From Nanobdellota archaeon (GTDB taxonomy: Archaea > Nanobdellota > Nanobdellia > Woesearchaeales > JBHPFW01), in assembly GCA_042571645.1 (NCBI GenBank), contig JBHPFW010000002.1:3456-67455 (forward strand): 64,000 nt of DNA. Reading direction: 5' to 3'. Positions within the stretch are counted from its first letter, which is position 1. Every line of letters starts with the position of its first letter. Shown one piece after another: positions 9,061 to 60,402 of this stretch. The notes below the pieces were generated by a model. It ran no database searches and was not told the origin of the DNA. It was given only the letters and a program-made list of their open reading frames with translations. Position numbers and translations under genes: made by a program.

Positions 9061-9169
9061 TTAAAGCCACCAGTGCCTAGAGTGCCTTTGTTTTTAGTCT
9101 GGTTTTGCATCCCCCTCATGATTGCGAGATGCGACAACACTTGCTTGGCACTCGCCCTGGTGGCTTTAA
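9061..9169 (+). repeat. Dispersed structured intergenic element, family A, copy 1
   Basis: 13-bp terminal inverted repeat TTAAAGCCACCAG/CTGGTGGCTTTAA; core GCCTAGAGTGC...CATGATTGCGAGATGC...TTGGCACTCGCCCTGG shared with five other loci. Confidence 0.92.
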
Positions 9170-9213
9170 TATTTACACAAATCTTATATAAAGAAAATAA
9201 TTAAGAATTAATC

Positions 9214-9438
9214 ATGCCAAAAAAGAACCCTACAAAAAGAAAGAAAAAAGCAGCCAAGAAAAAGATTGCTAAACTGAAGAAAATTATTAAGAAAAGAATA
9301 TCTAAAAAGGAAAAAATCCGCCAAAAGAAATTAAAAAAGAAATTCATAATATGGCTGGTTGTGGTTAAGGGCATTATACTAATAGCTGTACTTATTCTGT
9401 TTTATCTGTTTGTGAGAAAATTGATGGGCCTTCTTTGA
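9214..9438 (+). CDS. Small lysine-rich protein with a C-terminal transmembrane helix
   Basis: Highly basic N-terminus followed by one hydrophobic segment; TATA-like TTATATAAA upstream. Confidence 0.6.
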   Translation: MPKKNPTKRKKKAAKKKIAKLKKIIKKRISKKEKIRQKKLKKKFIIWLVVVKGIILIAVLILFYLFVRKLMGLL

Positions 9439-9444
9439 TCAGAT

Positions 9445-10368
9445 CTATTTCTCAAGCATCACTGCAGCAAGCAAAGGAAAAACAATTGTAACATCACTAT
9501 GAACTGTTACTGCTTTTGCATTTTCATTAACTTTTCCCCAGGATTTTGCTTCAGAAGTTGTAGCTCCACTCAAAGAACCTGTGTAAGGACTTGAAGTTTT
9601 TACATAAATACAATAATCAAATCCTTCTCTCATTAAATTTGCAATAATCGCATGATGTTTTGGAGTAGCACCACCCAGTATAATTCCAGCAGTTTTTTCT
9701 GCATTAGCTGCTTGGTCGATAATATTCTTGAAATCTTTTACAATGCTTACTTCAAAATCTTGGTGTTTTTGCTGGAAAAACATTAATTGCATTCCAAATG
9801 CTCCATCTGTTAATGCTGGACAGAAAATTGGCACATTATTTTTTGCAGCCTGCCATAATATGGAGTTAGAGTCTTCTTTCATGTTTTCTCCAACAAATTT
9901 TATCAGCTCAGATGGGAGCCAGGTCTTTTTTTGTGCATATGCTTTTTCTAATATCTTAGGCATTTCATCTTCTAGGTAAGTATATCTGTCATTTGGTACA
10001 TAAACATTTCCCATTCTATTAATTCCTTTCTTACCTAATTCCGTATCTTTTTCTTCATCAAAACTTCCCTGAAGATATGGTTTGTTGGATTTAATAAAAT
10101 CTTCATCAATTGTACCAGAACTTGTGCTGATAACATTAACCAGCCCTTCTTTAATGAGCTGTGCAATCAACCCTCTTAATCCAGAAGCTGCAATATTTGA
10201 AGTAAAACTCAGAAAAACTTTAGCTTTAGCTTTCTTCATTGCTCTAATTACATCTGCTGCTCGGCCTATTTGTTGTGCTTGAAACCCAGAGTCTTTAAGC
10301 TTAGCCAATAGGTCTTTCACAGTAATATTCTCATCCAGATCAAAGTCTATAATTGGTTTATCTGTCAT
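9445..10368 (-). CDS. dys: Deoxyhypusine synthase
   Basis: FTSNIAASGLR, GINRMGNVYVPN, PALTDG, GGATPKHH, GSLSGA, EAKSWGK (catalytic Lys retained). Confidence 0.93.
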   Translation of the reverse strand: MTDKPIIDFDLDENITVKDLLAKLKDSGFQAQQIGRAADVIRAMKKAKAKVFLSFTSNIAASGLRGLIAQLIKEGLVNVISTSSGTIDEDFIKSNKPYLQGSFDEEKDTELGKKGINRMGNVYVPNDRYTYLEDEMPKILEKAYAQKKTWLPSELIKFVGENMKEDSNSILWQAAKNNVPIFCPALTDGAFGMQLMFFQQKHQDFEVSIVKDFKNIIDQAANAEKTAGIILGGATPKHHAIIANLMREGFDYCIYVKTSSPYTGSLSGATTSEAKSWGKVNENAKAVTVHSDVTIVFPLLAAVMLEK

Positions 10369-10408
10369 ATTTAAGGGGAATGAGAATGGGTTTTTAAAAG
10401 TAATGGTA

Positions 10409-11296
10409 TTATTCCCTTAGATAAGCAGGCCAATTTTCTTTATCAAAGCCGTGCTGTGCAAGAAATGCGTATGCTAGTCTATTCAGCCCTAAGCCAGTAC
10501 ATCCACTCCAGAGATTCTGATCAGGACCAACATTAAATGCTTTTACCAGTCTATCATATTCTATGCCGCAACCTGCAATTTCTCTCCATTCTTCTTTATG
10601 GGGAAGCCAAACCTCAATATCATGGATCGGGATTTCATCAGGCTTTTGTGCTTTTTTGTATTTATCGAGGGTTTCAGGAAATCCACAGCATGGTTCTCCT
10701 ACTGTAGTCCTCCAATTTATTTCAAGATTTGTGAGATAAGATAAAACATATTTTTCTACAGTTCTTCTAGTTTCTCTTACTTGGTCAGGAGTACCGATAT
10801 AAATAAGTTCTAATCTTCGAAATTCTTTTGCTTTAAAGAAGCTATCTAACTCTTCTTCTTTTTCGTTTCTAAAAGTGGGTTCTATTCCTGGTTCATAAAC
10901 CAGAAGCGGTAAGTAATTTAGAGTCTGACCTCGAATAGCTTCATATAAAGGCGCACATTGAACAGGATCAAGTATGCGAGTAGTACTTCCTCGAGTAGCC
11001 TCAAATAAAAGTTCAGGAGTGTATTTTATACAACCAAAATCTGCCAGTGTTTGAGGTAATAGGAGTCTAGAAAAAACCATTTCTCCAAATTCCATTGGAT
11101 AAACAACTTCTTTTTCAAATAATTCTCTTAATTTAGTAAAAATACCAGTTATTTCTTGTCGATAGAGAAATACCCCTGGCGAAACTTCCTTAAGCCACTC
11201 TTTCTCCTCTGCAATCTTACCAACATCTCCAGAGAATGAATTAGAAAAATTTGGTCCTTCTTTCAATACAGTTCCAAATTTAGAAAAATCTGCCAT
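10409..11296 (-). CDS. Stand-alone catalytic domain of a methanogen-type (atypical) SerRS homolog, aa:carrier-protein-ligase-like
   Basis: LDPVQCAPLY, FRNE, EFRRLE, WSGCTGLGLNRLAYAFLAQHGFDKENWP match atypical SerRS motifs; 295 aa with no N-terminal tRNA-binding domain. Confidence 0.82.
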   Translation of the reverse strand: MADFSKFGTVLKEGPNFSNSFSGDVGKIAEEKEWLKEVSPGVFLYRQEITGIFTKLRELFEKEVVYPMEFGEMVFSRLLLPQTLADFGCIKYTPELLFEATRGSTTRILDPVQCAPLYEAIRGQTLNYLPLLVYEPGIEPTFRNEKEEELDSFFKAKEFRRLELIYIGTPDQVRETRRTVEKYVLSYLTNLEINWRTTVGEPCCGFPETLDKYKKAQKPDEIPIHDIEVWLPHKEEWREIAGCGIEYDRLVKAFNVGPDQNLWSGCTGLGLNRLAYAFLAQHGFDKENWPAYLRE

Positions 11297-11375
11297 TTTC
11301 AGACTTTTAGGATTGGTTTGATTTATTTAAACCTTTTCCATAAACTATTTAAAGCTTATAAAAGCCCTTTAATTC

Positions 11376-12140
11376 ATGAACCTTTTAATTGACGCACATG
11401 CACATCTGGATGATAAAGCATTTGAATCTGATTTAGACCAAGTCATAGATAATGCCAAAGCTGCTGGAGTTAAAGCTATTATCTGTTGTGGCTTGAATGC
11501 TGAGTCAAACAAAAAGATTCTGGAACTCTCTAAACAGTATGATCTTATTAAGCCGGCTTTTGGTGTTTATCCAATTGATACAAAAGAATTGACACAAGAG
11601 CAAGAAAAAGAATTCTTTGATTTTGTTTTAGAAAACAAACCTATAGCAATTGGTGAAGTTGGATTGGATTATCATTGGGAAAAAGATCAAGCTAACAAAG
11701 AAAAACAAAAAGAGTTTTTCAAAAAAGCAATTGAATTTGCAGAGAAAAATAATCTGCCAATGTCTATTCATTCAAGAAATGCAGAAGAAGATACAATTCA
11801 AATCCTGGAAAGTGCTAATCTGAAAAATATTAAAAACAAAATAATAATGCACTGTTTTGGTGGTAATAGTTCTCAAACAAAGAAAGTCATTGAGAATGGC
11901 TGGAGTTTCTCTGTCCCAACAAATATTGTAAGAAGCCAGCATTTTCAGAATATTGTCAAGCAAGCTCCAATAACACAAATTCTCACAGAAACAGACTGTC
12001 CTTATTTAGCTCCAGAAAAAGATCAGCGTAATGAGCCAGCTTTTGTTGCTAAGTCAATCAAGAAAATTGCGGAAATTAAAGGCATGACAAAAGAAGACGC
12101 TACAAACAACATTTTCATGAATTATCAGAGGATTTTCTAG
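11376..12140 (+). CDS. tatD: TatD family hydrolase
   Basis: DAHAHL, IGEVGLD, IHSRNA, MHCF, ETDCPYL. Confidence 0.95.
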   Translation: MNLLIDAHAHLDDKAFESDLDQVIDNAKAAGVKAIICCGLNAESNKKILELSKQYDLIKPAFGVYPIDTKELTQEQEKEFFDFVLENKPIAIGEVGLDYHWEKDQANKEKQKEFFKKAIEFAEKNNLPMSIHSRNAEEDTIQILESANLKNIKNKIIMHCFGGNSSQTKKVIENGWSFSVPTNIVRSQHFQNIVKQAPITQILTETDCPYLAPEKDQRNEPAFVAKSIKKIAEIKGMTKEDATNNIFMNYQRIF

Positions 12141-12171
12141 ATTTTTAAATGATTTGAGATATTATGAATAA

Positions 12172-12221
12172 CAAAAATTAGCCAAATATTTATAGTTCGA
12201 CTTTTAGTTGGCTAATTTTTG
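12172..12221. promoter_or_regulatory. Perfect 14-bp inverted repeat with a 22-nt spacer
   Basis: CAAAAATTAGCCAA (12172-12185) / TTGGCTAATTTTTG (12208-12221), between tatD and the next gene. Confidence 0.6.
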
Positions 12222-12310
12222 GAATTACAAATCAGTACTATATTTCTCTGATTTGTAATAAACTTTAAATATATCCTTTTGTACAGTACTCTAAAACGGA
12301 GGTAATCCCC

Positions 12311-12613
12311 ATGCAAATCACAATTGACACTAAACATGATACAAAAGAGGAGATTAAGAGAGTCATAGAGATCCTGACTCGTATAGTGGATGAGCCGGTT
12401 TCTAATTACTCCAGCAATACAAGCAGCTCGGATTCTCCTGCAATAACTGACTTCTTTGGCAATCCTATTGGCACTCCAGCCAGAGAATCTAGCAGCCAGA
12501 GCCCAACACCACCACCTTCAAATCAGCCGCCAGGAGATATATTCAGCATATTCCAGCCTTCTGATAATGAGCCAGAGAAAAAGCCAGACGGTTTTAAGAT
12601 AACTGAGTATTAA
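12311..12613 (+). CDS. Hypothetical protein, Ser/Pro-rich
   Basis: Shine-Dalgarno-like GGAGGT upstream; 100-aa ORF. Confidence 0.7.
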   Translation: MQITIDTKHDTKEEIKRVIEILTRIVDEPVSNYSSNTSSSDSPAITDFFGNPIGTPARESSSQSPTPPPSNQPPGDIFSIFQPSDNEPEKKPDGFKITEY

Positions 12614-12668
12614 CTTATTTCTATCTTTATTTATTAATAACAAAAACTTTCTAATTTTGTAAGTTCCA

Positions 12669-12708
12669 CAAAAACTTAAGTTTTTGGGAGCCAAAATCGA
12701 AGATTTTG
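12669..12708. promoter_or_regulatory. Palindrome cluster upstream of archease-rtcB
   Basis: Perfect 18-bp palindrome CAAAAACTTAAGTTTTTG (12669-12686) followed by hairpin CAAAATC-GAA-GATTTTG (12692-12708). Confidence 0.55.
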
Positions 12709-12786
12709 TGCTTTTGGAATTAAAAGACGATGTCGTCATCGTCTTTTAATAAAACTTATAAACCCTATTTCAACCCCTTCTTTAAA

Positions 12787-13212
12787 ATGGACAAGAAATT
12801 TGAGTATCTAGAACATACTGCAGATAAGAAATTTAGAGCATTTGGCAGTACACTAGAAGAAGCTTTCAAAAACTCAGGTTTAGCAATGTTCAATATACTT
12901 GTGAATCCAGAAGACGTCAAGCCTGAAATCAAGCACAAACTAAAGGTTAACACAAGAAAATTAGAATCTTTGCTTTATGATTTCTTAGAAGAGCTCTTAA
13001 TACTGTTAGATACAGATGGATTTGTACTTTCTAGCATAGACAAAATAGAAATAAAAGAAAAAGACGGTATTTTTGATCTGGTTTGTGAATTTTCAGGAGA
13101 CTCCTACAAAAACTACGAAGTTTCAGGAAACATAAAATCCATTACTTACAATGATATGAAAATAGAAAAGGTTAATAATAATTATGAAATCACAGCAGTA
13201 GTTGATATTTAG
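12787..13212 (+). CDS. Archease (RtcB cofactor); likely start MDKKFEY
   Basis: EYLEHTAD, GSTLEEAF, IKSITY, C-terminal VVDI; immediately upstream of rtcB. Confidence 0.94.
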   Translation: MDKKFEYLEHTADKKFRAFGSTLEEAFKNSGLAMFNILVNPEDVKPEIKHKLKVNTRKLESLLYDFLEELLILLDTDGFVLSSIDKIEIKEKDGIFDLVCEFSGDSYKNYEVSGNIKSITYNDMKIEKVNNNYEITAVVDI

Positions 13213-13220
13213 GTGGTAAA

Positions 13221-14648
13221 ATGACAGAATACAAAAAAGTTAATGATAATGAATTTGTAATTGAGAAAAAAGGCAAGATGAAAGTTCCTGTTAGGATATT
13301 TGCTTCTGAAAAGATTATGGAAAAACTTAAAGACGATAAAAGTCTTCAACAAGGCAGTAATGTTGCACAAATGCCTGGTATTTACAAGCATGCTTTAATG
13401 ATGCCTGATGCTCACCAAGGCTATGGGTTTTCAATTGGTGGAGTGGCAGCGTTTGATGCAAAAGAAGGATGCATCACTCCTGGAGGAATAGGCTTTGATA
13501 TAAATTGTGGAGTAAAATTTCTGATAACTAACTTAACAAAAGAACAGGTAGAGCCAAAAATTAAGGAATTGCTTGAAGCGATTTATGCCAGAGTGAAAGT
13601 TGGTGTTGGTGGAGAGTCAAAAATAAGATTAGAAGATGATGAATTAGATGCAGTTCTAAAAACTGGTGCAAAATGGACATTAGAAAAAGGCTATGCAACT
13701 AAGGATGATCTTGAGCATTGTGAGGAAAACGGCACAATGGAACAAGCAGATCCTTCAAAAGTAAGTCAAAAAGCAAAGAAGCGTGGCAGAAAACAACTCG
13801 GAACACTTGGAGCAGGAAATCATTTCATGGAAATTCAAGTTGTGGATGAGATTTTTGATGAGAAAATTGCTAAAGCATTTGGCATAGAGAAAAAAGGACA
13901 AATTGGTGTGATGATTCATTGCGGTTCTCGTGGATTGGGACATCAGGTTTGCAGTGATTATATCAGAAGAATGGAAGATGAACAACCTGAATTAATGGCG
14001 AGTCTGCCAGAAAAAGATTTGATCTATGCAAAAGCTGGTACAAAATTAGCAAATGATTATTTTGGAGCAATGTGCAGTGCAGCAAATTTTGCCTGGGCTA
14101 ATCGCCAAGTAATTGCTTTTGAAGTTAGAAATGCTTTCAAAGAAGTTTTTGGTGATTCTGAACTCAAACATGTTTATGATGTTGCTCATAATATTGCTAA
14201 ATTAGAAAAACATATGATTGATGGCGAGGAAAAAGAGGTGTATTTGCACAGAAAAGGTGCGACTAGAGCATTCCCTCCAGGACATCCAGATGTTCCAGAA
14301 GCTTATAGAGCTGTTGGCCAGCCAATAATTTTGCCAGGCAGCATGGGTACTGCTTCTTATATCTTAGTTGGCACACAAAAAGCAATGGAAGAAACCTTTG
14401 GCTCAACAGCTCATGGTGCAGGCAGAGTAATGTCAAGACATGCAGCAATTAATCAGTTCAGAGGAGAAGATATCAAGAAACAACTTGAAGCTAAAAACAT
14501 TACAGTTAAAGCAGGCTCGTGGAAAGGTTTATCAGAAGAAGCACCTCAGGTGTATAAAAAAATTGAGGATGTTATTCAAGTAACAGTTGATGCAGGTCTT
14601 GCAGGGCTGGTTGCTCGTGTTGTTCCGCTAGGCGTCATCAAAGGCTGA
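13221..14648 (+). CDS. rtcB: tRNA-splicing RNA ligase RtcB
   Basis: MPDAHQGYG, GFDINCG, GTLGAGNHF, HCGSRG, HNIAK, HRKGATR, HGAGR, EEAP. Confidence 0.97.
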   Translation: MTEYKKVNDNEFVIEKKGKMKVPVRIFASEKIMEKLKDDKSLQQGSNVAQMPGIYKHALMMPDAHQGYGFSIGGVAAFDAKEGCITPGGIGFDINCGVKFLITNLTKEQVEPKIKELLEAIYARVKVGVGGESKIRLEDDELDAVLKTGAKWTLEKGYATKDDLEHCEENGTMEQADPSKVSQKAKKRGRKQLGTLGAGNHFMEIQVVDEIFDEKIAKAFGIEKKGQIGVMIHCGSRGLGHQVCSDYIRRMEDEQPELMASLPEKDLIYAKAGTKLANDYFGAMCSAANFAWANRQVIAFEVRNAFKEVFGDSELKHVYDVAHNIAKLEKHMIDGEEKEVYLHRKGATRAFPPGHPDVPEAYRAVGQPIILPGSMGTASYILVGTQKAMEETFGSTAHGAGRVMSRHAAINQFRGEDIKKQLEAKNITVKAGSWKGLSEEAPQVYKKIEDVIQVTVDAGLAGLVARVVPLGVIKG

Positions 14649-16039
14649 AGCTCTTCCTTAGCGGATTTCATCAAATATAGAAAATTTTCTCCCTTTTTTG
14701 TTATATGGTAAATAATATTAACATCGCTCTTGATTTTATGTAAAAAACCTCTTTTTGTATTATCGCTTAAATATTTCTGAGCAGTCTTAATTGAAATGTT
14801 GTGTTTTTTAGCAAATTCAGATATTCTTCTATTATTAACTGATTTCAATCTTTCATAAAGAATCTTGAAATAGTAATTTGACAGTACATATTTCAGAAGC
14901 TTTCTTCTATTGTCTTTATGTTCTGCAAAAGCATTATTTTCTATTAGCCAAATACAGACTTCAAAATTAGTCGAAAGATGAATTTTAATATCTTGAGAAG
15001 AAGAATTAATATTAAGTAGTTTTAATAATTTCCTGATGCTTGGGTGTATTGATAAATTACCTTCTGATATGAAAATATCTAAGCTTGAATTATTAGCAAT
15101 GACAGTCCCATCCCCTAAGAGATATTTTATTATGAACCCTGTAGAGAATTCTCTTAGGTAGTTATTTAATTTTTCTTGTTTTTCAAGATGTGTTCTTATT
15201 TTTGTTAGTATTGTTATCATGATTTGTCCTAAAGTAGTATTAGGAATATACATGCTATAAATTATATCTAAGAGATTCTTATTTTTAATAAGTGATATGC
15301 TGGTTTCATTGATATCTAAAAGCTTGGCAAATTCTTTTTTACGTGATTCTAAACACTCATTAGTTATGTCAGGATTGTGAAATATCATCCCTTTCCAAGA
15401 GGATTCTGGTATACCAAATAACTTGGAAATATCCATGAATAAGTTTATTTGACTTAAGAACTTCATTGTAAAATCAAGTCTAACTCCATTTTTAGAAGAC
15501 TCTGCTTGCATTAATCCGAAAAATTCACCAAGTTTTTCATCAATCGTAACAAATCTCTTTAATTCTATTGATTTTGCATTTCCTCCTTTCCCAGAACAAT
15601 ACCAAGCTTTCAGCCAATCTTCATCATTTTTGTTAAAAAGCTCAACCATTATAGTTTTATTACATTTAGTTTTTCTAGGAATCAGTGCTAATAAATCAAG
15701 ATAGTCTCCAATAATTATTCTATTAGTTCTTATATTATCAACTAAAGAGATGGATATATCTAAAATATCGCCTGTTTTCAAATTAGCCTTTTCCACAAAA
15801 TCTTTAGGAACAGCTCTTCTGACTTGTAAATTGTCTCTGCTTTTAGGCAAACTGGGAATGCTCAGATAAGTTTGATATTTGTGACTATCTTTTTGAATAT
15901 TGAGTTTAACATAATTATCTGGTTTGGCTCCGATTTTTCTTATAGAACTTGTTGGAATAGTAAATCTAAATTTATCACGATCAGGAAATACCTTGATTTT
16001 TATAAACTCTTTTTTGATTATTTTTTGATTAATTTCCAT
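14576..16039 (-). CDS. Free-standing LAGLIDADG-family endonuclease-like protein
   Basis: Two LAGLIDADG-like helices (LGEFFGLMQAESSK; GFIIKYLLGDGTV), two N-terminal AbrB-like repeats, C-terminal HTH; overlaps the rtcB 3' end antisense by 73 nt. Confidence 0.75.
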   Translation of the reverse strand: MEINQKIIKKEFIKIKVFPDRDKFRFTIPTSSIRKIGAKPDNYVKLNIQKDSHKYQTYLSIPSLPKSRDNLQVRRAVPKDFVEKANLKTGDILDISISLVDNIRTNRIIIGDYLDLLALIPRKTKCNKTIMVELFNKNDEDWLKAWYCSGKGGNAKSIELKRFVTIDEKLGEFFGLMQAESSKNGVRLDFTMKFLSQINLFMDISKLFGIPESSWKGMIFHNPDITNECLESRKKEFAKLLDINETSISLIKNKNLLDIIYSMYIPNTTLGQIMITILTKIRTHLEKQEKLNNYLREFSTGFIIKYLLGDGTVIANNSSLDIFISEGNLSIHPSIRKLLKLLNINSSSQDIKIHLSTNFEVCIWLIENNAFAEHKDNRRKLLKYVLSNYYFKILYERLKSVNNRRISEFAKKHNISIKTAQKYLSDNTKRGFLHKIKSDVNIIYHITKKGENFLYLMKSAKEELQPLMTPSGTTRATSPARPASTVT

Positions 16040-16273: not shown

Positions 16274-16291
16274 ATTCTTAGCAGTTTTTAA

Positions 16292-16399
16292 AAGACTGCC
16301 AGGGCGAGTGCCTAACACATATTATTTCCTTTCGCAATCATGACAAATAGATGCAATAACATTCAGAAACTCCTTAGCACTCTGGGCGCTGGCAGTCTT
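16292..16399 (-). repeat. Family A structured element, copy 2
   Basis: Terminal stem AAGACTGCCAG/CTGGCAGTCTT; same conserved core on the minus strand. Confidence 0.92.
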
Positions 16400-16407
16400 A
16401 TTTATAC

Positions 16408-16869
16408 TTAGACCAACAACAAAATAATTATAAGAAATATCAAAACACCATTTAGAATTAATTCTTCTCTGCCTGCATTGAATAGCCAGCCAAATTCTTT
16501 TGTTTTGAACATCTCGGGTTCATATATGCTTAAGTCATCCAGCAAGTAATGGCTGTAATAAGCTAAAGCAATTATCAAAGAAGCAACAGGATTGAATATA
16601 AAAACAACACCAACAATAATACTAACAACTATAAAAGCAATAGGATTATGAAGCAAGGTTTCATGATGTTCAATATGATATACTGTTTTGTGCCACATCT
16701 TTTTTAGATCAAATTTCTTGTGAAATACCAAATTGCTAATTACATGATCAAAATCCATAAATATGGCTAAAATCGCCACTAAGAAAGCTATATGCAAGCC
16801 TAACAAACCTCTTTCATAAGCTATTACTCCAAGCAATAATGCCAGTAAAAAATGACTTTGAGGGAACAT
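16408..16869 (-). CDS. Membrane-bound metal-dependent hydrolase (YdjM/DUF457-like); likely start MFPQSH
   Basis: SH...DFDH...LLH...SHYLLD pattern with hydrophobic helices. Confidence 0.65.
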   Translation of the reverse strand: MFPQSHFLLALLLGVIAYERGLLGLHIAFLVAILAIFMDFDHVISNLVFHKKFDLKKMWHKTVYHIEHHETLLHNPIAFIVVSIIVGVVFIFNPVASLIIALAYYSHYLLDDLSIYEPEMFKTKEFGWLFNAGREELILNGVLIFLIIILLLV

Positions 16870-16921
16870 ATAAAGCTTTATAGAAGTTTCATTTAAAAAG
16901 TTTGCTTTAAAATGATCAAAA

Positions 16922-17929
16922 TTAACTTTTAGTATATATTTCAACTAATTCATGAAAATTGACTGCATTATACCTAGCAAAGAACCCACAAAGAGATGTG
17001 CAATCAAGACAATATCTGCCTTTTAGTTCTCTAATATTTCTATTTGCTTCACCAAGGTATTTCTCTCTAGTCATATCTAAAAAATTAGCATTGGATTTGG
17101 ATCCTGCTGCAGCACATTTGAAAATCTTGCCATCTATATCAATTTGGATAGCATTTAATCCTATGCCGCAGTCTTCAAATAATGCGTCATCAGCTAAATA
17201 ATTAGGAATACCATTCAAATAATGTAAAGGAGTAGTTATCAAAGCACCATTATCTTTTTCTTTAATTAAATAATCAACAATCTTTTGTAGTTCCCCACTT
17301 ATTGCTGGATCTTGGCGAATTAAAGGTTCTTGATTTACCAGCCCAAAGGATATTGAGATATTAAATGCTACTTCTTCTACTAATTTATGAATTTCATCAA
17401 GATTATAAGGAGTTATTACACAATGAATTTTTCCTATAATTCCATGCTCGTCCTTTGCATATGTTAATAGATCTATTAAATCAGGTTTTTCTGCAAGGGT
17501 TTTTTTAGAGCTGTTTATTGAATCAACACCATCTAAAGAGACATAGATAAAATCACCTCCTGCTTTTGCAAATGAATCTATGAATCTTTCATCTAATAAG
17601 CTCCCATTTGTACTAATTGAACTAATCATATTAAAGCTATTAGCATATTCTATTAAATTAATCAAATCTTCTCTTAAAAGAGGCTCTCCGCCTATGAAAT
17701 TAATGACAGGAATATCAAATTCTGTTTGAGAGTGTTCAATTATTGTGCGAGTTGATTCTTCAGAAGAAGCTTCAGAGGATTTGGGCAAGTCACAATAACC
17801 ACAATCAAGATTACAATCATGAGTTATATAATACTGTAATAAGTATAAGGCAGATAAACCTAAGAATTTTTCTTTTTCTGCATTTTTATAAAACTTTAGG
17901 AGTCTATCTATTTTGCTCGTAGTAATCAT
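16922..17929 (-). CDS. Radical SAM protein with a SPASM/twitch-like C-terminus
   Basis: CNLDCGYC, GGEPLL, STNG, SLDG; extra C-terminal Cys residues. Confidence 0.9.
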   Translation of the reverse strand: MITTSKIDRLLKFYKNAEKEKFLGLSALYLLQYYITHDCNLDCGYCDLPKSSEASSEESTRTIIEHSQTEFDIPVINFIGGEPLLREDLINLIEYANSFNMISSISTNGSLLDERFIDSFAKAGGDFIYVSLDGVDSINSSKKTLAEKPDLIDLLTYAKDEHGIIGKIHCVITPYNLDEIHKLVEEVAFNISISFGLVNQEPLIRQDPAISGELQKIVDYLIKEKDNGALITTPLHYLNGIPNYLADDALFEDCGIGLNAIQIDIDGKIFKCAAAGSKSNANFLDMTREKYLGEANRNIRELKGRYCLDCTSLCGFFARYNAVNFHELVEIYTKS

Positions 17930-20330: not shown

Positions 20331-21032
20331 TCAAATCTTAATGATCTTGCCTTTTTTGCCAACATTCAGAACTTTTGTTTTTCCGAGCTTTTCCTCAATG
20401 CCTTCTGCTTCATGGACGTGGCTGCATAATAGCAGGTCTGGCTTGAATTTCTCTACAGCTCTTTTAATGCCTGGACTTCCAGGAACAAAATCTGAGAATT
20501 TCTCCATAGTTGTTTCAGAAGGATGGACATGAGTTACCATGATCTTCTTTTTTAGATAGTTTATCTTATCATTACCTTTTTTCAATAGATCATATATCTC
20601 TTTTTCAGTCATCTTATCTAATCCAATGTTTACACCACTACAACCAAAAATTCCAACATCTGCATAATTTACAGAATAACCATGTATGTTTTTCACACCA
20701 TACATATCCGCCAAAAAATCAGCTGTTGCAATTGTGTCATGATTTCCAGGTATTAGAAGAACTTTTTTATGGTGTTTTTTGAACGGCCCAATTAAATTAT
20801 CAGCATTTTGATCCATAAAAGTTAAATCACCACAAAGAATTACTAAGTCAACATTTTCTTTTTCTGCTCTTGCAGCAAGTTTTTCTGCTAGATCAGTATC
20901 TCCGTGGATGTCTCCTGCTGCAAGAATTTTCAGTTTTTTGCCTTCATTCTCCTTCCCAAATTTCTGCTCTGCAGAAATTGGGCCCAATTGAGCTTTGCTC
21001 AATTTGGGTTTATCTTTTTTAGCAGCACTCAT
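20331..21032 (-). CDS. Calcineurin-like metallophosphoesterase
   Basis: GDIHG, CGD, PGNHD, THVHP, SHVHE. Confidence 0.92.
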   Translation of the reverse strand: MSAAKKDKPKLSKAQLGPISAEQKFGKENEGKKLKILAAGDIHGDTDLAEKLAARAEKENVDLVILCGDLTFMDQNADNLIGPFKKHHKKVLLIPGNHDTIATADFLADMYGVKNIHGYSVNYADVGIFGCSGVNIGLDKMTEKEIYDLLKKGNDKINYLKKKIMVTHVHPSETTMEKFSDFVPGSPGIKRAVEKFKPDLLLCSHVHEAEGIEEKLGKTKVLNVGKKGKIIKI

Positions 21033-34069: not shown

Positions 34070-34115
34070 AGAATCTTAGAAATCTAGGATGTATTTAAAG
34101 TTTTAGTATGGGAAT

Positions 34116-34222
34116 GAGTTCGCCAGCGCCTAGAGTGCTAAGGTATTTTCCATTGTTTTGCATCACCCATCATGATTGCGAGATGCAACAAAATCCTGCT
34201 TGGCACTCGCCCTGGCGAACTT
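34116..34222 (+). repeat. Family A structured element, copy 3
   Basis: Terminal stem GAGTTCGCCAG/CTGGCGAACTT; conserved core. Confidence 0.93.
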
Positions 34223-34264
34223 AGTATGGTAATATTTTTAAATCAGCAATAACATAATGATATT

Positions 34265-41875: not shown

Positions 41876-43087
41876 ATGGCAAAAGAAAAAGTTGTACTAG
41901 CATATTCAGGTGGTTTAGACACATCCTGTATACTCAAATGGCTGATTGAAAAAGGCTATGAAATAATAGCAGTAGCTATTGATTTAGGCCAAAAAGAAGA
42001 TTTTAAGGAAGTAGAAGAAAAAGCTTTGAAAGTTGGGGCTTCTAAATTCCAGCTAATTAATGTTCAGGAAGAGTTTGTTAAAGATTTTGTTTTCCCAGCA
42101 ATTAAGGCTAATGCAAAATATGAAGGAAAGTATTTATTGGGTACTAGTTTAGCTAGACCTTTAATTGCAAAAAAATTAGTTGAAGTAGCTAAAAAAGAAA
42201 AAGCTCAGTATATTTCTCATGGTGCAACAGGCAAAGGCAATGACCAAGTTAGGTTTGAATTAACTGCTTCTGCATTAGCACCAGAATTAAAATTCATAGT
42301 ACCGTGGCGTACACAGGAATTCCTAGATCAATTCCAGGGAAGAAATGATTTAATTGAATATGCAGAAAAACATAATATTCCAGTAAAAGCTTCTAAAAAA
42401 GCACCTTGGAGTACAGACCCAAATGTTATGCACATTAGTTATGAAGCGGGCATATTAGAAGATCCTTGGACTCCACCACCAGAAGAGATGTATGAGATGG
42501 TAGTTCAGCCAAAAGATGCTCCAGACAAGGAAACAGTTTTGGAGATTGAATTTAAGAAAGGTATTCCTGTAAAAGTTAAACATGATGGAAAAGAAGTAAC
42601 TGGAGCTTTGAAATTGTTTGAATACCTAAATAAAGTCGGTGGAGAAAATGGTGTTGGAATAATTGACATGGTGGAAAACAGATTTGTTGGAATGAAATCT
42701 CGCGGCAGTTATGAAACTCCTGCTGGTACAATACTTTTTGAGGCTCATTTGGATATTGAAGGCATTACAATGGACCGTGAAGTCAAGCTATTACGTGATG
42801 GTTTAATACCAAAGTATGCTACTCTGATTTACAATGGTTTTTGGTTTGCACCAGAAATGGAATTCTTACAAGCAGCATTTGATAAAAGCCAAGAGAATGT
42901 AGAAGGCACAGTGAAGTTAAGTTTGTATAAAGGAAATATCAAATTACTTGGACGTAAATCACCAAATAGTTTATACGATGAGAAAATAGCTTCAATGGAT
43001 GAACATGGTGGCTATGACCAAAAAGATGCAACTGGATTTATTAAATTGAATGCTTTACGGTTAAAAGCTCGGAGTAAGAAGAAATAA
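41876..43087 (+). CDS. argG: Argininosuccinate synthase
   Basis: [39 protein letters not shown]. Confidence 0.97.
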
Positions 43088-43095: not shown

Positions 43096-43201
43096 GAGTT
43101 CGGCAACGCCTAGAGTGCTAAGGTTTAACACATAGTTTTGCGTCAATGATCATGATTGCGAGATTATATAATACTTTGTTGGCACTCGCTCTGGCGAACT
43201 C
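43096..43201 (+). repeat. Family A structured element, copy 4 (partly degenerate)
   Basis: GAGTTCG/CGAACTC ends; CGCCTAGAGTGCTAAG and CATGATTGCGAGAT core; begins 9 nt after the argG stop. Confidence 0.9.
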
Positions 43202-53045: not shown

Positions 53046-53054
53046 AACAATAAA

Positions 53055-54661: not shown

Positions 54662-54707
54662 AATTAAAGGTTGGAAGATATAGGTATTTAAGCTTTTCTG
54701 TGTTTAT

Positions 54708-55013: not shown

Positions 55014-55023
55014 CTTAAACACC

Positions 55024-55130
55024 AAGTTTGCCAGCGCCCAGAGTGCTAAGAAACATATTCATGGATTTGCATGGTTGCCTGAGATTGCGAGATACAACCG
55101 CACATTGTTGGCACTCGCCCTGGCAAACTT
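55024..55130 (+). repeat. Family A structured element, copy 5
   Basis: Terminal stem AAGTTTGCCAG/CTGGCAAACTT; conserved core. Confidence 0.92.
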
Positions 55131-55179
55131 AATTTAATGAAAAAGTGGGATAACTATATAATCTTAGTGGTCAGAAAAA

Positions 55180-55195
55180 TGTCCCTTAAGGGTCA
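55180..55195. promoter_or_regulatory. Near-palindrome upstream of a wHTH gene
   Basis: TGTCCCTTAAGGGTCA, 12 nt before TTTATATA. Confidence 0.45.
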
Positions 55196-55236
55196 AAATA
55201 GAAACCTTTATATATCATTAAGCATTTCTTTAAATT

Positions 55237-55599: not shown

Positions 55600-55913
55600 G
55601 ATTTCTGTTTCTCAACAAAAGCCTTAACCTGAGGATCGCCTTGTGGCTGGGCACTTGGGCCTAAAGCATAATACTTCTTTTCTACTGTGCCTCCCCAGCT
55701 GAAATTACCCTGCTCAATTTTGACTTCATCAGCTTTAATTTCACCCAAGTCAATACCTTTTTGCAAATGATAATAGATAGAACGTAATGTAACTTTTGGG
55801 AAGATTTGTTTGTATATTTTGAAGATCTCATAGCCATAAGCTTTACCTACAACTGCTAGAATCTCAATGACATTCTGCCTTATCTGGCTTTTTACAGGTC
55901 TTCCTCTTGGCAT
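55596..55913 (-). CDS. PadR-like winged-helix protein; likely start MPRGRP
   Basis: AYGYEI, SIYYHLQK, KKYYALG. Confidence 0.7.
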   Translation of the reverse strand: MPRGRPVKSQIRQNVIEILAVVGKAYGYEIFKIYKQIFPKVTLRSIYYHLQKGIDLGEIKADEVKIEQGNFSWGGTVEKKYYALGPSAQPQGDPQVKAFVEKQKS

Positions 55914-56047
55914 ATAAAGAAAGGAGAAATTCCTATTTAAATAGTTTTTGTATATATTGAAAAGAAATTCGCCAGGAAGCATAATCTTAAATAATACTAA
56001 TTAATCCGAAACATTATAATAATCAGATATAGTTTTGGTATGTTACA

Positions 56048-56554
56048 ATGGTTGCAGTAACACTTGAAGAACAATCTAGAAAAGGTGAACGAGGCATTAT
56101 CACTGCTTCTGAAGTAAATGACAATTATCTAAATCTTCCTAGTATGGATGATTTAGTAAATCATGCTTTGAGATATATAAAATTGCCAGGATATGACTGC
56201 TTTTCTACTGATAAAGACTTTGCTGAATATATCAAAGATACAATTCTAGAATCTTCTTTATGCGCAAAAGAAAGCTTTATTGAAGGTATGAAAATAATGC
56301 CCCAGAACAAAGAAGATTTCTTGAGTGGAAAGTTTGTTGACTGTGGCATACACAGATCAGTTGGTGATGGCATATTAAGATTCGAAATTCTCCAATCATT
56401 TTATAATCAGGTTCTATATTTTCTTGAACATGATGGACCGGAAACACGGTTTGGAGGCTATGATTTTATCTCTCTAACTGTTCCATTTAAGAATCAGGTT
56501 GAAACCTTTGTTGAGAATGTCAGAGAAAAAGCACAAGAATATAGAACTCAATAA
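56048..56554 (+). CDS. Hypothetical protein, paralog of 23493..24005
   Basis: Shared sequence blocks with 23493..24005. Confidence 0.75.
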   Translation: MVAVTLEEQSRKGERGIITASEVNDNYLNLPSMDDLVNHALRYIKLPGYDCFSTDKDFAEYIKDTILESSLCAKESFIEGMKIMPQNKEDFLSGKFVDCGIHRSVGDGILRFEILQSFYNQVLYFLEHDGPETRFGGYDFISLTVPFKNQVETFVENVREKAQEYRTQ

Positions 56555-57032
56555 AGATTCTAAAATCATATGCCCATTAAAGAAAGGTTTTTATACAATC
56601 TCCAAACATCCTTTTTCTATGCAAATATATGAAGGAGATTTTCAAGCAGCTTGGGGAAAACCTCTAGAAGAGATTGCAGCTATGTATAAAGAGCAAGGCC
56701 ATCTAGATTTAGCTAAATTAAAACCTATATCAAATAATGATTACTTAAGAAATCTGCATTATGAAAGGCAAGCTAAAGAATGGACTGATTATGCATTCCA
56801 AGAAATGAAATCTCCTTTCCTAAGAGAATATGCTAGTCCTGATGAAATCCAAGGGTTGATTGATTCAGCAGTAGATGAGACAAAAGAAGCAATATTATTT
56901 TTAGCTAGTTCTTCTGCAGAAATGGCAAGAGTAGAACTTGGCGATAAAATAAGATCTATAGGTCAATTAAGAAAAGAAAGAGAAGCAAATAAAATATTAC
57001 CAGAACTTAGGGCAGAATTAGCTCAAAAGTGA
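56499..57032 (+). CDS. Hypothetical protein; start possibly 56619
   Basis: Helical ORF; the 5' part overlaps the previous gene. Confidence 0.55.
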   Translation: MKPLLRMSEKKHKNIELNKDSKIICPLKKGFYTISKHPFSMQIYEGDFQAAWGKPLEEIAAMYKEQGHLDLAKLKPISNNDYLRNLHYERQAKEWTDYAFQEMKSPFLREYASPDEIQGLIDSAVDETKEAILFLASSSAEMARVELGDKIRSIGQLRKEREANKILPELRAELAQK

Positions 57033-58010
57033 ATCAAATTCTCTCAAATATTTCTCAGCAATCTCTTCATCCTCAATTATCACAATATTCTCATCATTAT
57101 TAACATCTGCATTGATGCTGGGATTAAAACTGCCAGTAATGACTATCTTTTTGTCTATGATGAATACTTTGTGATGCATCATTCCACCATTATTGTCCCA
57201 TGAAATTTCTATATTTGTTTTGTTCTGCAAATTTTTGAACTGATTGTATTTGCTGTTCTGGGATTTCTCAAAAACACCCTTAATAGTGATGCCTTCTTTT
57301 GCTTTTCTTATTAAAGCTCTGCTGATCCAATCATGAGTAAAAGAAAATGTCATGAAATAAATACTGGAATTTGCTTTTTCGATTTGTTCTAAAATCCTAT
57401 TAGCACACCAATCCTCTGGACAAAAATAATACTCTATTGAAATATTATTATGAATTAATTTGTTGTTTTTTGTTCTTTCTTTGGTGTATTTGTTTTTCCA
57501 CAATTCTTGGAATTCTTTTTCATAGTTTTCTGCCATGGATTTTGAGTTGATTATCATGAAATTGTTGTTGTTTCTCTTATCTCCATTAAGAGTCGGGTTG
57601 AAAGATCCTGTAGTTATTGTTTTATTATCTATCACACAGAATTTGTTGTGCATATATTTCCCTTTTTTATCAATAGCGTAATTGCTTGCAGGGATTTTAT
57701 TAATTATTTCATCCAGATTTCTGTCATCCACAATAACTAAGCCATTTTTTTCATTTATTATCTTGATTATTTCGTGCAGGTTAAGCTCAAAGAATGCGCA
57801 ATGGATAAATTGAGTGGATTTGTTTAAGGTGTTAGCTAAATGAGTTGAACAATTATCTCTAGGACAGAAATAGATTTGGATTGGGGAGTTAGTTTCTGTA
57901 ATTATGTTATTTGTTTGGTTGTTTGGTGAGCTTATCTCGCTTGTTTCACAACTAATTATGAAAAAGCTGTTTATAACGATCAGCATCACAATAATCATTA
58001 TTTTATTCAT
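57018..58010 (-). CDS. Phospholipase D family protein, secreted or lipoprotein-like
   Basis: Two HKD motifs (HNKFCVID, HHKVFIID), GSFN; N-terminal signal with Cys. Confidence 0.92.
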   Translation of the reverse strand: MNKIMIIVMLIVINSFFIISCETSEISSPNNQTNNIITETNSPIQIYFCPRDNCSTHLANTLNKSTQFIHCAFFELNLHEIIKIINEKNGLVIVDDRNLDEIINKIPASNYAIDKKGKYMHNKFCVIDNKTITTGSFNPTLNGDKRNNNNFMIINSKSMAENYEKEFQELWKNKYTKERTKNNKLIHNNISIEYYFCPEDWCANRILEQIEKANSSIYFMTFSFTHDWISRALIRKAKEGITIKGVFEKSQNSKYNQFKNLQNKTNIEISWDNNGGMMHHKVFIIDKKIVITGSFNPSINADVNNDENIVIIEDEEIAEKYLREFDSLLS

Positions 58011-58101
58011 TCAAATAGAGAATGCAAAGGGGTTTAATAACCTTATTGAGAAAAGTTATCCCGGAATTAGAAAAGTTCTAAAAAAATAAATTAAAAAATA
58101 C

Positions 58102-60234
58102 CTAATAAACAGGTATCTTAGTGCTAGATTCTTTCAACTCTATGTTCTTGACCTTGCCTAAATCTTCTATCCTATTTATTCTTAACAAGCTAGGAGATTT
58201 TGTGTAGAGCAATTCCTCGATGTAGAGGCTTCTTTCAACTAGAGGTTGATATCTATAGTTATTGCTGCTTTCTGCCATTGAATGGTCTATTAAGCCACGA
58301 AGCTCAATTTCGTCTTTGGTTATCTTAAACACAAATGCGCCATTATAGCTTTCATCTTCATCCCTATAACTTCTGCTATGAGCAGGTATCACAAGCATTT
58401 CTTTTTCTTTGGAAAACAAGAATGCCTTATGCTCATACAAAGCACTAGAGTCTGAGTAACGTTCATCTGCAATATAATTAGCTATTTCTTTTGGATTCTC
58501 AAAATCACTAACATCAAACAATGAAATTTTTAAGCCTTTCTGACGGCCAGTTTCTGTTGCATCTTTGCCAATACCAATTATTGTATTTTCATCATAAGGA
58601 TGAAGATATCTTGAAAATCCTGGAATCTTTAATTCACCAAGCTCTACAATATTGCTAGGATCAGCTAAGTCAATTACAAAGAATGGATCAACCTGCCTGA
58701 AAGTAACCATATACAATTTGTCTCTGATAAATCTTGTTGAGAAAATTCTTTCTCCTTCTGCTAGGCCTTCAAGTTCATCCAATATTTCAAGATCTTTGTC
58801 CAGTGTGTATATATTGTTAGTTGACTGGGATCTTTCTTTGCTGAATCTTGACCATCTTGGGCTTACTGTAGTAGCAATTCTAAAAACATCATCATATTCG
58901 TCCATAGAAAACTGATTCAGCACTTGCCCAGGAACTTTGCCATTAGCTTCTGGTTTGATTGAGGCTTTATCCACATTGATTTTATTTATTATTGTAAATT
59001 CAAAGAACTTGAATTCTTCTAATTTTTTGGTGAGAGAAGCTTCAACATCATCTTCAAGCTCATCTTGGTCTTCCTGCGACATAAAGTTTATGTAGGTCTG
59101 ATAAATCTGCCAAATCTTGTTTTCTTTTTCTTGTCTGGAAAGAACATCATTGTCTGTTGCTTTGATTTTTTCTATTACTTTTTTGTCTGCATTGGACAAT
59201 TTATCTTCTAATAAATCTATAGTTATTTCTCTTCTTAAATCCCACTCATTTATACGTTCTGTATAAGTAATGTAGATATTATCCTGAGACATGTACATAT
59301 TTCTAGAGCCTTCAACAGCAATAGTCTTTGATGAAACATCTTCTGAAGGATTCTTTAGATTAATTGCATTAATATTTACAAACTGAGCATTTTGGTAAGG
59401 AATGTCAAAGTAAAAAATATCCTCTACTGCCACAGATCTCATTACATTATCCTCAAATATCACCGGCATCGGAATTGGCCTATGAACCATACCTGAAGAT
59501 GTTATGAAATACGCATAGCCATTAGTCATTCTTGCTCTGAAATACCTGCCTTCAAACTTGTATTCCTTTGTTAATTCAGGATTATTTCTGTCAGAGATAT
59601 CATATATGTTAAAGAAAGTCATTCCATTAACCGGCCTAAAATCAATTTCATTGAAATAATCATTATCATAGAAGTTTCCAAACACAGCTAAATTATCGCC
59701 ATTGATGAATATGCTTTCTGGTTTGTTATCAAACTTAATTGTGGAAACAATCTCTGCATCTTCTCCAGGATATGCTTTTATTATGTAAAGAACTTTTTTT
59801 GAAACAGTGTATATATAGTTGCCGTCTGTTTTGATTATATCTGCTTCATCTACACCTTTAACTTGGATGTTTGTTTCTGAAAAATCAGTTGGAGCCTGAG
59901 CAATTTCTCCACCTGCTTTTGCTGTTGGAGCTGCCATTGGAACAGATTCTTCCATAACTGCCATGTCCATATCAACCATGGCATTTCTTTCCATCATAAT
60001 CCCGCCATAATATCCTGAGCCTTGATTTTCTTTTATGAAATTCAGAAGTTCTGTTTCTGACTGAAATTGTTTTGTGACAATTTCTTCATCATAACTTAAA
60101 GTTGATGTGGAATAAGTGCCAGGATCTATTGTGACCGAAGGAGGACTTGGCGGTCTTGGTTGTTCGCATGCTATTGTAAAAAACATCAAAGAAATTAAAA
60201 GAATGCTTATTATAATTTGATTTTTTTGTTTCAT
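58102..60234 (-). CDS. Secreted beta-propeller domain protein (Beta_propel family)
   Basis: Signal peptide plus Cys; FSETNIQVKGVDEADIIKTDG, NQFSMDEY, VTFRQVDP, GELKIPGFSRYLHP. Confidence 0.9.
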   Translation of the reverse strand: MKQKNQIIISILLISLMFFTIACEQPRPPSPPSVTIDPGTYSTSTLSYDEEIVTKQFQSETELLNFIKENQGSGYYGGIMMERNAMVDMDMAVMEESVPMAAPTAKAGGEIAQAPTDFSETNIQVKGVDEADIIKTDGNYIYTVSKKVLYIIKAYPGEDAEIVSTIKFDNKPESIFINGDNLAVFGNFYDNDYFNEIDFRPVNGMTFFNIYDISDRNNPELTKEYKFEGRYFRARMTNGYAYFITSSGMVHRPIPMPVIFEDNVMRSVAVEDIFYFDIPYQNAQFVNINAINLKNPSEDVSSKTIAVEGSRNMYMSQDNIYITYTERINEWDLRREITIDLLEDKLSNADKKVIEKIKATDNDVLSRQEKENKIWQIYQTYINFMSQEDQDELEDDVEASLTKKLEEFKFFEFTIINKINVDKASIKPEANGKVPGQVLNQFSMDEYDDVFRIATTVSPRWSRFSKERSQSTNNIYTLDKDLEILDELEGLAEGERIFSTRFIRDKLYMVTFRQVDPFFVIDLADPSNIVELGELKIPGFSRYLHPYDENTIIGIGKDATETGRQKGLKISLFDVSDFENPKEIANYIADERYSDSSALYEHKAFLFSKEKEMLVIPAHSRSYRDEDESYNGAFVFKITKDEIELRGLIDHSMAESSNNYRYQPLVERSLYIEELLYTKSPSLLRINRIEDLGKVKNIELKESSTKIPVY

Positions 60235-60296
60235 TTTTAGTTACCTCGTTGATATTTTATTAATATTTAATTTTACTATAATTTATGTTTTAACTT

Positions 60297-60402
60297 GAGT
60301 TCGCCAGGGCGAGTGCCAACAATGTGTTTTTGCATCTCGCAATCATGACAGGTGATGCAAAACAATTGGAAATACCTTAGCACTCTAGGCGCAGGCGAAC
60401 TT
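60297..60402 (-). repeat. Family A structured element, copy 6
   Basis: Reverse complement closely matches copy 3; begins 6 nt after the stop of 60408..61127. Confidence 0.93.

Follow-up and report, generated by a model that had tools for sequence, protein, structure and literature searches.

Six copies in the window and a genome-wide family

The stretch of DNA analysed here, a window of 64,000 nucleotides on contig JBHPFW010000002.1 of a Nanobdellota archaeon (Woesearchaeales; assembly GCA_042571645.1), carries six intergenic copies of a ~107-nt hairpin element that we refer to as family A. The metagenome-assembled genome (MAG) holding this window spans 1.49 Mb in 55 contigs and is 82% complete, for a genome size of ~1.5-1.8 Mb, and its proteins have their nearest relatives among Woesearchaeota, Nanoarchaeota and Aenigmatarchaeota proteins. 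An initial annotation, made from the letters alone, had pointed out six dispersed hairpins that it took for members of one family, and all six are indeed present in the places and orientations that it had proposed: they align end to end with a mean column identity of 73%, share the invariant blocks GCC.AGAGTGC, GATTGCGA and GGCACTCGC.CTGG, and have a G+C content of 43-51% in a window of 31-35%. Compared with dinucleotide shuffles, all six fold into far more stable structures (z = -3.5 to -6.3). That the copies form one repeat family sharing a fold is supported.

Copy 1 (9063-9167, forward strand, 105 nt; 101.3 bits with covariance model R1, z = -5.7) belongs to a 'GAGTGCC-TTTG' subfamily and has the outer stem AAAGCCACCAG/CTGGTGGCTTT, with ATT/AAT extending the pairing into its flanks. 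Copy 2 (16292-16399, reverse strand, 108 nt; 104.1 bits, z = -3.5) has the outer stem AAGACTGCCAG/CTGGCAGTCTT and lies in sense orientation 8 nt past the stop codon of a gene encoding a 178-aa protein (16408-16944, reverse strand). Copy 3 (34116-34222, forward strand, 107 nt; 114.1 bits, z = -6.3) serves as the exemplar. Copy 4 (43096-43201, forward strand, 106 nt; 108.2 bits, z = -4.7) starts 8 nt past the stop codon of argG (41876-43087, assigned by Pfam) and is partly decayed, its outer stem having two mismatches and its apex being degenerate. Copy 5 (55024-55130, forward strand, 107 nt; 97.9 bits, z = -3.5) lies between divergent open reading frames (ORFs) and has a variant 'type 2' apex, GCATGG...CTGAGATTGCGAG, while copy 6 (60297-60402, reverse strand, 106 nt; 115.5 bits) is found in sense orientation 5 nt past the stop codon of a helix-turn-helix gene (60408-61127, reverse strand, assigned by Pfam).

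Family A folds as one long irregular hairpin, and its copies occupy unrelated intergenic sites. The outermost layer is a variable outer stem of 9-19 bp (in copy 3, arms 34116-34126 and 34212-34222), inside which a C·C, sometimes T·C, mismatch (C 34127 and C 34211) is followed by two invariant G-C pairs (GC 34128-34129 and GC 34209-34210). Between these pairs and an inner helix, the 5' strand bulges out by three nucleotides, CYA (CTA, 34130-34132). Mismatch, G-C pairs, bulge and inner helix together make up a conserved asymmetric element that we call the box. The inner helix itself counts 6-9 bp, GAGTGC(UAA)/(UUG)GCACUC (GAGTGC 34133-34138 and GCACTC 34203-34208), and includes a conserved U·G pair, with U·G at one helix-2 pair in 27/36 copies. 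Above the box, AT-rich linkers pair with each other in a register that varies from copy to copy, and at the apex it is the sequence that is conserved, TTTGCATC-N5-TCATGATTGCGAGAT, a near-palindrome TTGCATC-N17-GATGCAA with a central TCATGA; the interior of copy 3 has TTTTGCATC at 34156-34164 and TCATGATTGCGAGATGC at 34170-34186.

A first covariance model, built from the six window copies, was run on the whole assembly, where it found 36-38 full copies on the sense strand; nhmmer added one more copy, a partial one on contig C54 and, at C11:7519, a remnant with an internal deletion. The six elements first noticed are real and belong to a family of ~39 copies, or one per 38 kb, exactly six of which lie in the window. 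All comparisons reported here are between these paralogous copies within one genome, and the counts on anatomy and covariation come from an alignment (A4) of 36 genome-wide copies. The closest pair in the genome is made of window copies 3 and 6, which are 89% identical, and typical pairs are 60-80% identical. Since even the closest pair reaches only 89%, the family is probably no longer moving: judged from these identities, the copies appear to be old and none seems to have moved recently. Signs of decay were found in copy 4 (its two stem mismatches and degenerate apex) and in the remnant at C11:7519.

Searches elsewhere returned no family-A element. The covariance model found none in 40 and then in 400 genomes of the same order, with nine candidates scored per genome in the latter run, so that weak matches may be missed there; when 185,579 species genomes, along with contigs from metagenomes and viruses, were scanned for the pattern, chance matches only came up, none of which passed the model. 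Family A was also absent from 49 kb around the closest ArgG relatives (72-75% identical) and, counting these loci, from ~185 kb taken from the other Woesearchaeota MAGs and viral contigs bearing the X hairpin described in the last section. So far, then, family A has been seen only in this one tiny archaeon of the symbiotic (DPANN) type. Rfam gave no match at gathering score over the window, noise only when one copy was searched at E <= 10, and nothing at three other loci, in agreement with the initial annotation, which had not recognised a known family.

Known RNA classes were also considered. When the alignment is read by eye, the bulge precedes Watson-Crick G-C and A-U pairs rather than the tandem G·A pairs of a kink-turn/L7Ae site, and it lacks a second 3-nt bulge at a distance of 4 bp as in the bulge-helix-bulge splice motif. 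The stem has no ACA box after it, and the register in which the linkers pair with one another varies, which does not suit a C/D or H/ACA guide RNA. Independent archaeal small RNA (sRNA) genes were rejected as well, no conserved promoter or T-run flanking the copies.

Covariation and maintenance of the stems

The initial annotation had noted that the outer stems differ between copies and yet stay paired, and these compensatory changes are real. Among the 36 aligned copies, both sides change in 11 of the 13 outer-stem pairs while 96.4% of the cells remain paired. The GAGTGC/GCACTC helix, also proposed earlier, is present and in addition covaries, which had gone unnoticed: both sides change in 5/9 of its pairs, with the variants GAACTC/GAGTTC, GAGCAC/GTGCTC and GAGTCC/GGACTC. 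When the two helices are combined, 16/22 pairs show two-sided changes and none of 500 shuffles matches the observed covariation score; as a control, shifting the partner by 1-3 columns lowered pairing from 92% to less than 41%. The same does not hold for the apical hairpin TGCATC/GATGCA that had been described on top of them, as it is paired in 78% of cases with not a single pair changing on both sides, which makes the apex a conserved sequence and not a helix. An alternative G·U-rich apical pairing does slightly better than TTGCATC/GATGCAA and is likewise not established; changes in the apical pairing are one-sided (U·G/U-A and A-U/G·U).

The arms of the outer stem comprise 32 different 11-nt sequences among the 36 copies, with only CCAG/CTGG and AAG/CTT semi-conserved, so that they read AAG....CCAG/CTGG....CTT. 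As the initial annotation had argued, these are covarying ends and not the fixed terminal inverted repeats (TIRs) of a transposase. The pairing is specific to each copy: a 5' arm matches its own 3' arm at 94.7% Watson-Crick pairs and the 3' arm of another copy at 58% (94% and 51%, respectively, when only the outer 8 bp are considered). Three further features bear on how such stems are kept. The non-Watson-Crick outer-stem pairs (n = 21) include four G·T and three A·C, revealing no wobble bias. Changes in length are mirrored in both arms, as in TAAG-ACTGCCAG/CTGGCAGT-CTTA versus TAAG-CTGCCAG/CTGGCAG-CTTA. Finally, the palindrome runs at least 3 bp (8 bp at most) past the 11-bp arm into flanking DNA that is unique to the site in 14/36 copies, when mismatched flanks predict 4.8% (p = 4e-10). 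Similarity between copies in their arms is also hardly related to similarity in their interiors (Mantel r = 0.15, with 130 of 2,000 permutations as high), whereas the two halves of the interior follow each other (Mantel r = 0.50), and the history of the stem thus appears decoupled from that of the interior.

Template switching has been documented or proposed to create, repair and maintain perfect stems (PMC8794818). Compensated changes without wobble, mirrored indels, palindromes extended into flanks and a decoupled stem history all point to copying from arm to arm at the DNA level rather than to selection at the RNA level through wobble intermediates. After insertion, the outer stems would have been kept paired, and even lengthened, mainly by such copying, that is, by quasi-palindrome correction through template switching during replication, a single step of which could produce compensated substitutions and mirrored indels with no wobble intermediate. 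Given the lack of wobble bias, the mirrored indels and the palindromes running into flanks, outer-stem covariation does not by itself speak for an RNA. These three signatures are also a warning for the discovery of non-coding RNAs by covariation. Another origin of the stems, insertion of the element into pre-existing palindromes, was examined and rejected: the genome is no richer than shuffles in hairpins whose stems reach 9 bp or more, and no 'empty' ...CCAG|CTGG... palindrome was found.

Neighbouring genes, mobility and the nature of family A

Copies between tandem genes had been described as lying in sense orientation 6-9 nt after a stop codon. Window copies 2, 4 and 6 do lie in this way (8, 8 and 5 nt), but genome-wide it is a trend only, with 11 tandem-sense and 7 tandem-antisense copies next to 10 convergent and 9 divergent ones, in a genome where 65% of the intergenic regions are tandem, 18% convergent and 17% divergent. 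At first sight, orientation thus looks random. A polarity was nevertheless found when the two ends of the element were compared. Using ORFs of at least 90 aa, the distance to the next gene has a median of 26 nt at the 5' end and 173 nt at the 3' end, and the 5' end is nearer to a gene than the 3' end in 30/37 copies (p = 7e-5), a bias that stays significant, by smaller margins, at cut-offs of 60 and 120 aa. It concerns facing stop codons (median 9 nt at the 5' end versus 160 nt at the 3' end, p = 0.007) as well as facing start codons (44 versus 178 nt, p = 0.004), and when a stop codon lies within 20 nt of one end only, that end is the 5' end in 9/10 copies (p = 0.02, counting ORFs of 100 aa or more). 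The sense strand also folds better than the antisense strand, by 2.9 kcal/mol, and is the better folder in 22/32 copies (p = 0.002). The 3' flanks have no common sequence, but a partner copy, a tRNA-like gene or structured repeats of other kinds are often found in them. Strand-specific action, or strand-specific insertion in the past, would fit this polarity, a 3'-end hairpin after a gene being one case of it. The 73 genes adjoining the copies have no gene family in common, save for one pair; upstream of the copies, no position exceeds 0.35 bit of information and there is no transcription factor B recognition element (BRE) or TATA signal at a fixed distance; and a T5 run that could act as a downstream oligo-T terminator occurs in just 6/38 copies.

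The serious rival to our interpretation, and a quite possible one, takes family A for a set of cis-acting structured RNA elements maintained by the host, in which a specific RNA-binding protein or nuclease would bind the bulge or box and the apex and thereby set mRNA 3' ends, stability or processing, the sense transcript coming either from read-through past the stop codon or from a bidirectional promoter close by. Conservation by region would suit it, with an identity of 89% in the box and 70% in the apex against 49-58% in the linkers, which have drifted to ~50% in old copies, and so would the character of the elements as G+C-rich islands in an AT-rich genome. The better folding of the sense strand, the short median distances of the 5' end from facing stop and start codons, the 9:1 sense bias of stop-adjacent copies, the conserved U·G pair and the one-sided changes in the apical pairing are all in line with an RNA as well, as is the fact that the nested insertions described in the last section lie at unpaired positions only. 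However, of the 18 copies between tandem genes, 7 run antisense to the genes on either side, and nine copies lie between divergent genes, there is no conserved promoter or terminator signal around them, and the outer stem shows no preference for wobble pairs and has its indels mirrored. The related genomes searched also hold no homologue, which would be unusual for a functional RNA class.

Alternatively, the copies may be sites that act as DNA, either as a cruciform or as folded single-stranded DNA, bound or cut by a structure-specific protein such as a tyrosine recombinase, as IntI does on attC, with a role in recombination, replication or chromosome organisation; we consider this unlikely. 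attC sites are variable imperfect palindromes that are recognised by structure through conserved extrahelical bases and whose apical structure varies in length, and family A resembles them as a sequence-variable palindrome with conserved extrahelical bases: its CYA bulge and C·C mismatch beside a variable stem follow the same logic of recognition. The strand-symmetric outer stem, Watson-Crick without wobble bias, the near-palindromic apex with its central TCATGA and one encoded Xer-like tyrosine recombinase would also fit. So would two pairs of copies arranged tail to tail, 24-28 nt apart, as in bacterial interspersed mosaic elements (BIMEs): C15:15684/15819 (15684-15926) and C6:69729/69863 (69729-69969), each of which includes one of two divergent 'type 4' copies with a GAGCAC/GTGCTC helix and a different apex. 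Unlike attC sites, however, family A has no R''/R' (RYYYAAC/GTTRRRY) or L boxes, its conserved box sits inside the variable stem and not at the ends, and its copies are dispersed singly and not in cassette arrays, with no IntI-type integrase identified. A single recombinase of the Xer type, needed to resolve dif, is to be expected in any archaeon, and neither the polarity towards neighbouring genes nor the folding asymmetry between sense and antisense strands would be explained.

We also searched for an enzyme that could have moved family A. The assembly contains no gene of the RAYT/Y1 HUH type (PF01797) at E <= 0.1 and no TnpB zinc-ribbon domain above cut-off, nor any DDE_Tnp_1, rve or IS110 gene, while control genomes gave positive results, so that the transposase or insertion sequence (IS) partner that the initial annotation had thought worth looking for is missing from the 82% of the genome that is assembled. 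Flanking direct repeats are no better than in shuffled flanks in 36/38 copies, arguing against target-site duplications (TSDs), and no target motif or conserved base was found outside the arms among the aligned copies; flanks that are not self-complementary rather continue the palindrome than repeat directly (for example TG...CA). The direct repeat is convincing in 1/38 copies, namely copy 3, whose flanks (34100-34115 and 34223-34234) share GTATGG(G/T)AA with 8/9 bases, equalled by 2/200 shuffles; it may be coincidental, or else a target duplication of a rare, long kind.

These data largely refute a classical MITE (a miniature transposable element with inverted repeats), which would be a deletion derivative of a DDE-type IS moved by cut-and-paste through fixed TIRs and leaving TSDs. 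The size, copy number, intergenic position and inverted-repeat shape of family A would fit such an element, and so would the T/A that 20/36 copies have at the position next to the 11-bp arm, on its outer side, where TA or TTAA-like bases are frequent. Direct TSDs beyond chance are nevertheless lacking, the ends differ in nearly every copy and their flanks continue the palindrome, no DDE-type gene is encoded, and no longer element bracketed by family-A half-sites or with the same ends exists in the assembly, which leaves this origin very improbable.

A candidate autonomous parent on contig C54 was rejected. It is the sole pair of outward-facing half-sites, and the contig (2,057 nt) is a foldback around a YggS-like gene, with a 959-nt inverted repeat of 100% identity around a 139-nt centre. 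A second contig, C38 (6,365 nt), is also a foldback, with a 3.1-kb inverted repeat at 99.2%. Both are probably assembly or amplification chimeras, not elements with long terminal inverted repeats.

Our best reading is that family A is the archaeal counterpart of the bacterial ERIC/REPIN-type elements, and neither a cut-and-paste MITE nor a set of sRNA genes. More precisely, and with a probability of roughly one half, it would be a lineage-specific, non-autonomous, dispersed structured repeat that spread through a folded single strand and is now resident, its stems maintained at the DNA level and its RNA probably acting as a passive 3'-end hairpin. The past spread would have gone through a folded single-stranded intermediate with the asymmetric box as its recognition site, which would explain why TSDs are missing, why the fold is strand-asymmetric and why the extrahelical bases are conserved. 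The copies would be transcribed only passively, and a copy in sense orientation after a stop codon would form a stable 3'-end hairpin that probably affects mRNA stability or processing, by analogy with ERIC and REP (repetitive extragenic palindromic) elements.

Several observations weigh against this reading. The polarity towards 5' neighbours is not predicted by neutral insertion. The far better conservation of the box than of the linkers in old copies suggests purifying selection on each resident copy and hence a host function, as the RNA alternative would have it; a selfish element in decay would not display such a contrast, which is the principal weakness of a purely selfish reading. No mobiliser (Y1/HUH, TnpB, DDE_Tnp_1, rve or IS110) was found in the 82%-complete assembly. 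With no near-identical pairs of copies and no presence/absence polymorphism, it is dispersal alone that speaks for mobility, and template switching was deduced from patterns. Finally, the count of stop-adjacent copies drops to 9/14 (9:5) at the 5' end once ORFs of 60-99 aa are added.

The initial annotation had also suggested a REP/ERIC-like element, and this remains the best available description, as an analogy that claims neither sequence homology nor common descent. ERIC elements, or intergenic repeat units (IRUs), of Enterobacteriaceae are imperfect palindromes of 127 bp (Hulton et al. 1991; Wilson & Sharp 2006, cited in PMC10969869) and affect the stability of flanking mRNAs in an orientation-dependent manner (PMC10969869). 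Family A likewise consists of imperfect palindromes of ~100-130 nt, in tens of diverged intergenic copies, with variants due to internal insertions and no associated known transposase. It differs in being archaeal and seen, as far as the searches reach, in one genome, and in having an outer stem that is hypervariable, perfectly paired and extended into the flanks. Wilson & Sharp (2006) reportedly traced longer ERIC variants to insertions at specific internal sites.

REPINs are intergenic, hairpin-forming elements that are mobilised as single strands (Bertels & Rainey 2011, PMC3116915). Family A shares with them a size of ~100 nt, an extragenic location, the absence of target-site duplication and a proposed single-stranded intermediate, as well as clusters, inverted pairs and elements inserted in or beside each other. 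On the other hand, a REPIN is made of two inverted REPs while the family-A core is asymmetric and not duplicated, there is no RAYT or Y1/HUH gene and no terminal tag of the GTAG/CGTC type, and copies that all differ by at least 11% do not form a cloud in which close mutants surround one master sequence. Archaeal MITEs (Sulfolobus SM1-SM4, Halobacterium, and the palindrome-associated transposable elements, or PATEs, of Haloquadratum) are present in 25-44 copies per genome (listed in PMC10969869), and family A resembles them in being archaeal, non-coding, intergenic and of similar copy number; yet it has neither the fixed TIRs matching a resident IS and the TSDs of the DDE types, nor the sub-terminal hairpins and TnpA of the IS200/IS605 type. 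Compared with PATEs derived from IS200/IS605, the whole family-A element is a single hairpin, with no Y1_Tnp and no TnpB zinc ribbon in the assembly.

Structured dispersed repeats such as REP, REPIN, ERIC and RPE (Rickettsia palindromic element) are well studied in bacteria. To our knowledge, those of archaea have barely been described, and we know of no report from DPANN lineages, whose genomes are small and dense and are thought to carry little repeat DNA. Family A would offer a clean case for asking how hairpins are mobilised without a RAYT or an IS, and whether compensatory changes in stems come from selection on RNA or from template switching on DNA, the signatures found here favouring the latter.

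The nested XY module and other structured repeats

Ten family-A copies contain a nested double mini-hairpin of 45-55 nt, the XY module, and all ten insertions lie at unpaired positions of the family-A fold, where XY would have been inserted later. Six of these copies are ~160 nt long and have a 55-nt XY, CTAAATTGAGCAAAGCTCAATTTGCATCCTAAAAATGTTGGCATTTTTATGATG, in the apical loop at TCATG^ATTGCGAG. In the other four (C12:1222, C13:33578, C9:43016 and the fragment on C54), a related XY pair occupies the very position of the C·C mismatch, with repeated GCGC(C) on its borders. Three copies with backbones that differ by ~20% have the same apical XY over all of its 55 nt, so that XY would have spread recently and site-specifically, or else by gene conversion. 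The Y hairpin has compensated variants of its own (AAAAATG/CATTTTT versus AGAAATG/CATTTCT), and the X hairpin occurs at further sites in this genome flanked by GCAC/GTGC/GCGC, a kind of tag that family A itself lacks.

The XY module was also found within genes. Three unrelated proteins have a 54-nt version of it, CCCA-AATTGAGCAAAGCTCAATT-GGGCCCA-ATTTCTGCAGAGCAGAAAT-TTGGG, as an in-frame insertion that encodes 18-22 aa (PKLSKAQLGPISAEQKFG): in the window, in a metallophosphoesterase (ORF 20331-21032, reverse strand, insert 20955-21008), and elsewhere in a uL22-like protein and a homoserine dehydrogenase (G000:C5:52099-52848 and C25:19404-20732). In the homoserine dehydrogenase, the insert corresponds to an extra loop that is absent from the solved homologue (PDB 3mtj). 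By analogy, this appears to be the behaviour of a Rickettsia palindromic element in an archaeon (for the comparison, PMC10969869 and PMC3733652), and the likeness concerns XY and not family A: both are palindromic repeats found in frame in unrelated housekeeping proteins, and XY would be the archaeal counterpart of these elements. Its short GC-rich flanking tags resemble those of CGTC-tagged repeats. XY differs from RPEs in its length (54 nt versus ~100-150 nt), its archaeal hosts, its nesting in another repeat family and a first hairpin that is invariant across several Woesearchaeota MAGs.

Indeed, at least seven other Woesearchaeota/Nanoarchaeota MAGs contain exact matches to the X hairpin of 20 nt, AAATTGAGCA(A/G)AGCTCAATT (JACPBS01, JACPTE01, JACPIG01, CALCXY01, JBBSWH01, JABJHR01 and CAIVED01), at no fewer than ten sites in JACPBS01. 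There, X nearly always precedes a second hairpin that is variable in sequence yet paired, and at two loci (L121 and L123) it lies within arrays of several types of mini-hairpins that resemble BIME mosaics. One may speculate, with some doubt, that a 'hairpin ecosystem' extends across the Woesearchaeota/DPANN clade, comprising the X hairpin AAATTGAGCAAAGCTCAATT with its covarying partner, family A and repeats of a family B/C type. An enzyme of neither the HUH nor the DDE kind, acting on folded single strands, would copy these hairpins into each other's loops and in frame into proteins, while template switching and host selection would keep them paired, the residents serving as RNA or DNA structures bound by proteins. 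Were this the case, family A would not be decaying junk but one layer of a previously undescribed system.

Other structured repeats were noticed near family A. One is a family of ~170 nt, GACTCGCTAAAGCTCGGGCACCATCGGGTTCGC...CCCCGGATGGGGCGACCCCC...GATGATGGTGCCGCAC, without a match in Rfam, seen at G000:C12:1386, C18:25419, C7:245, C9:12475 (reverse strand), C1:72553, C2:88253, C18:21571 and C28 ~7600; three members are found 14-25 nt downstream of family-A copies and share their orientation, and it may be what the initial annotation had called family B. Another lies 3' of the family-A copy at C12:15920, where a G+C-rich segment of ~150 nt (G000:C12:16030-16190), closed by GGCTGCGTCA...TGACGCAGCC, looks like a further structured RNA.

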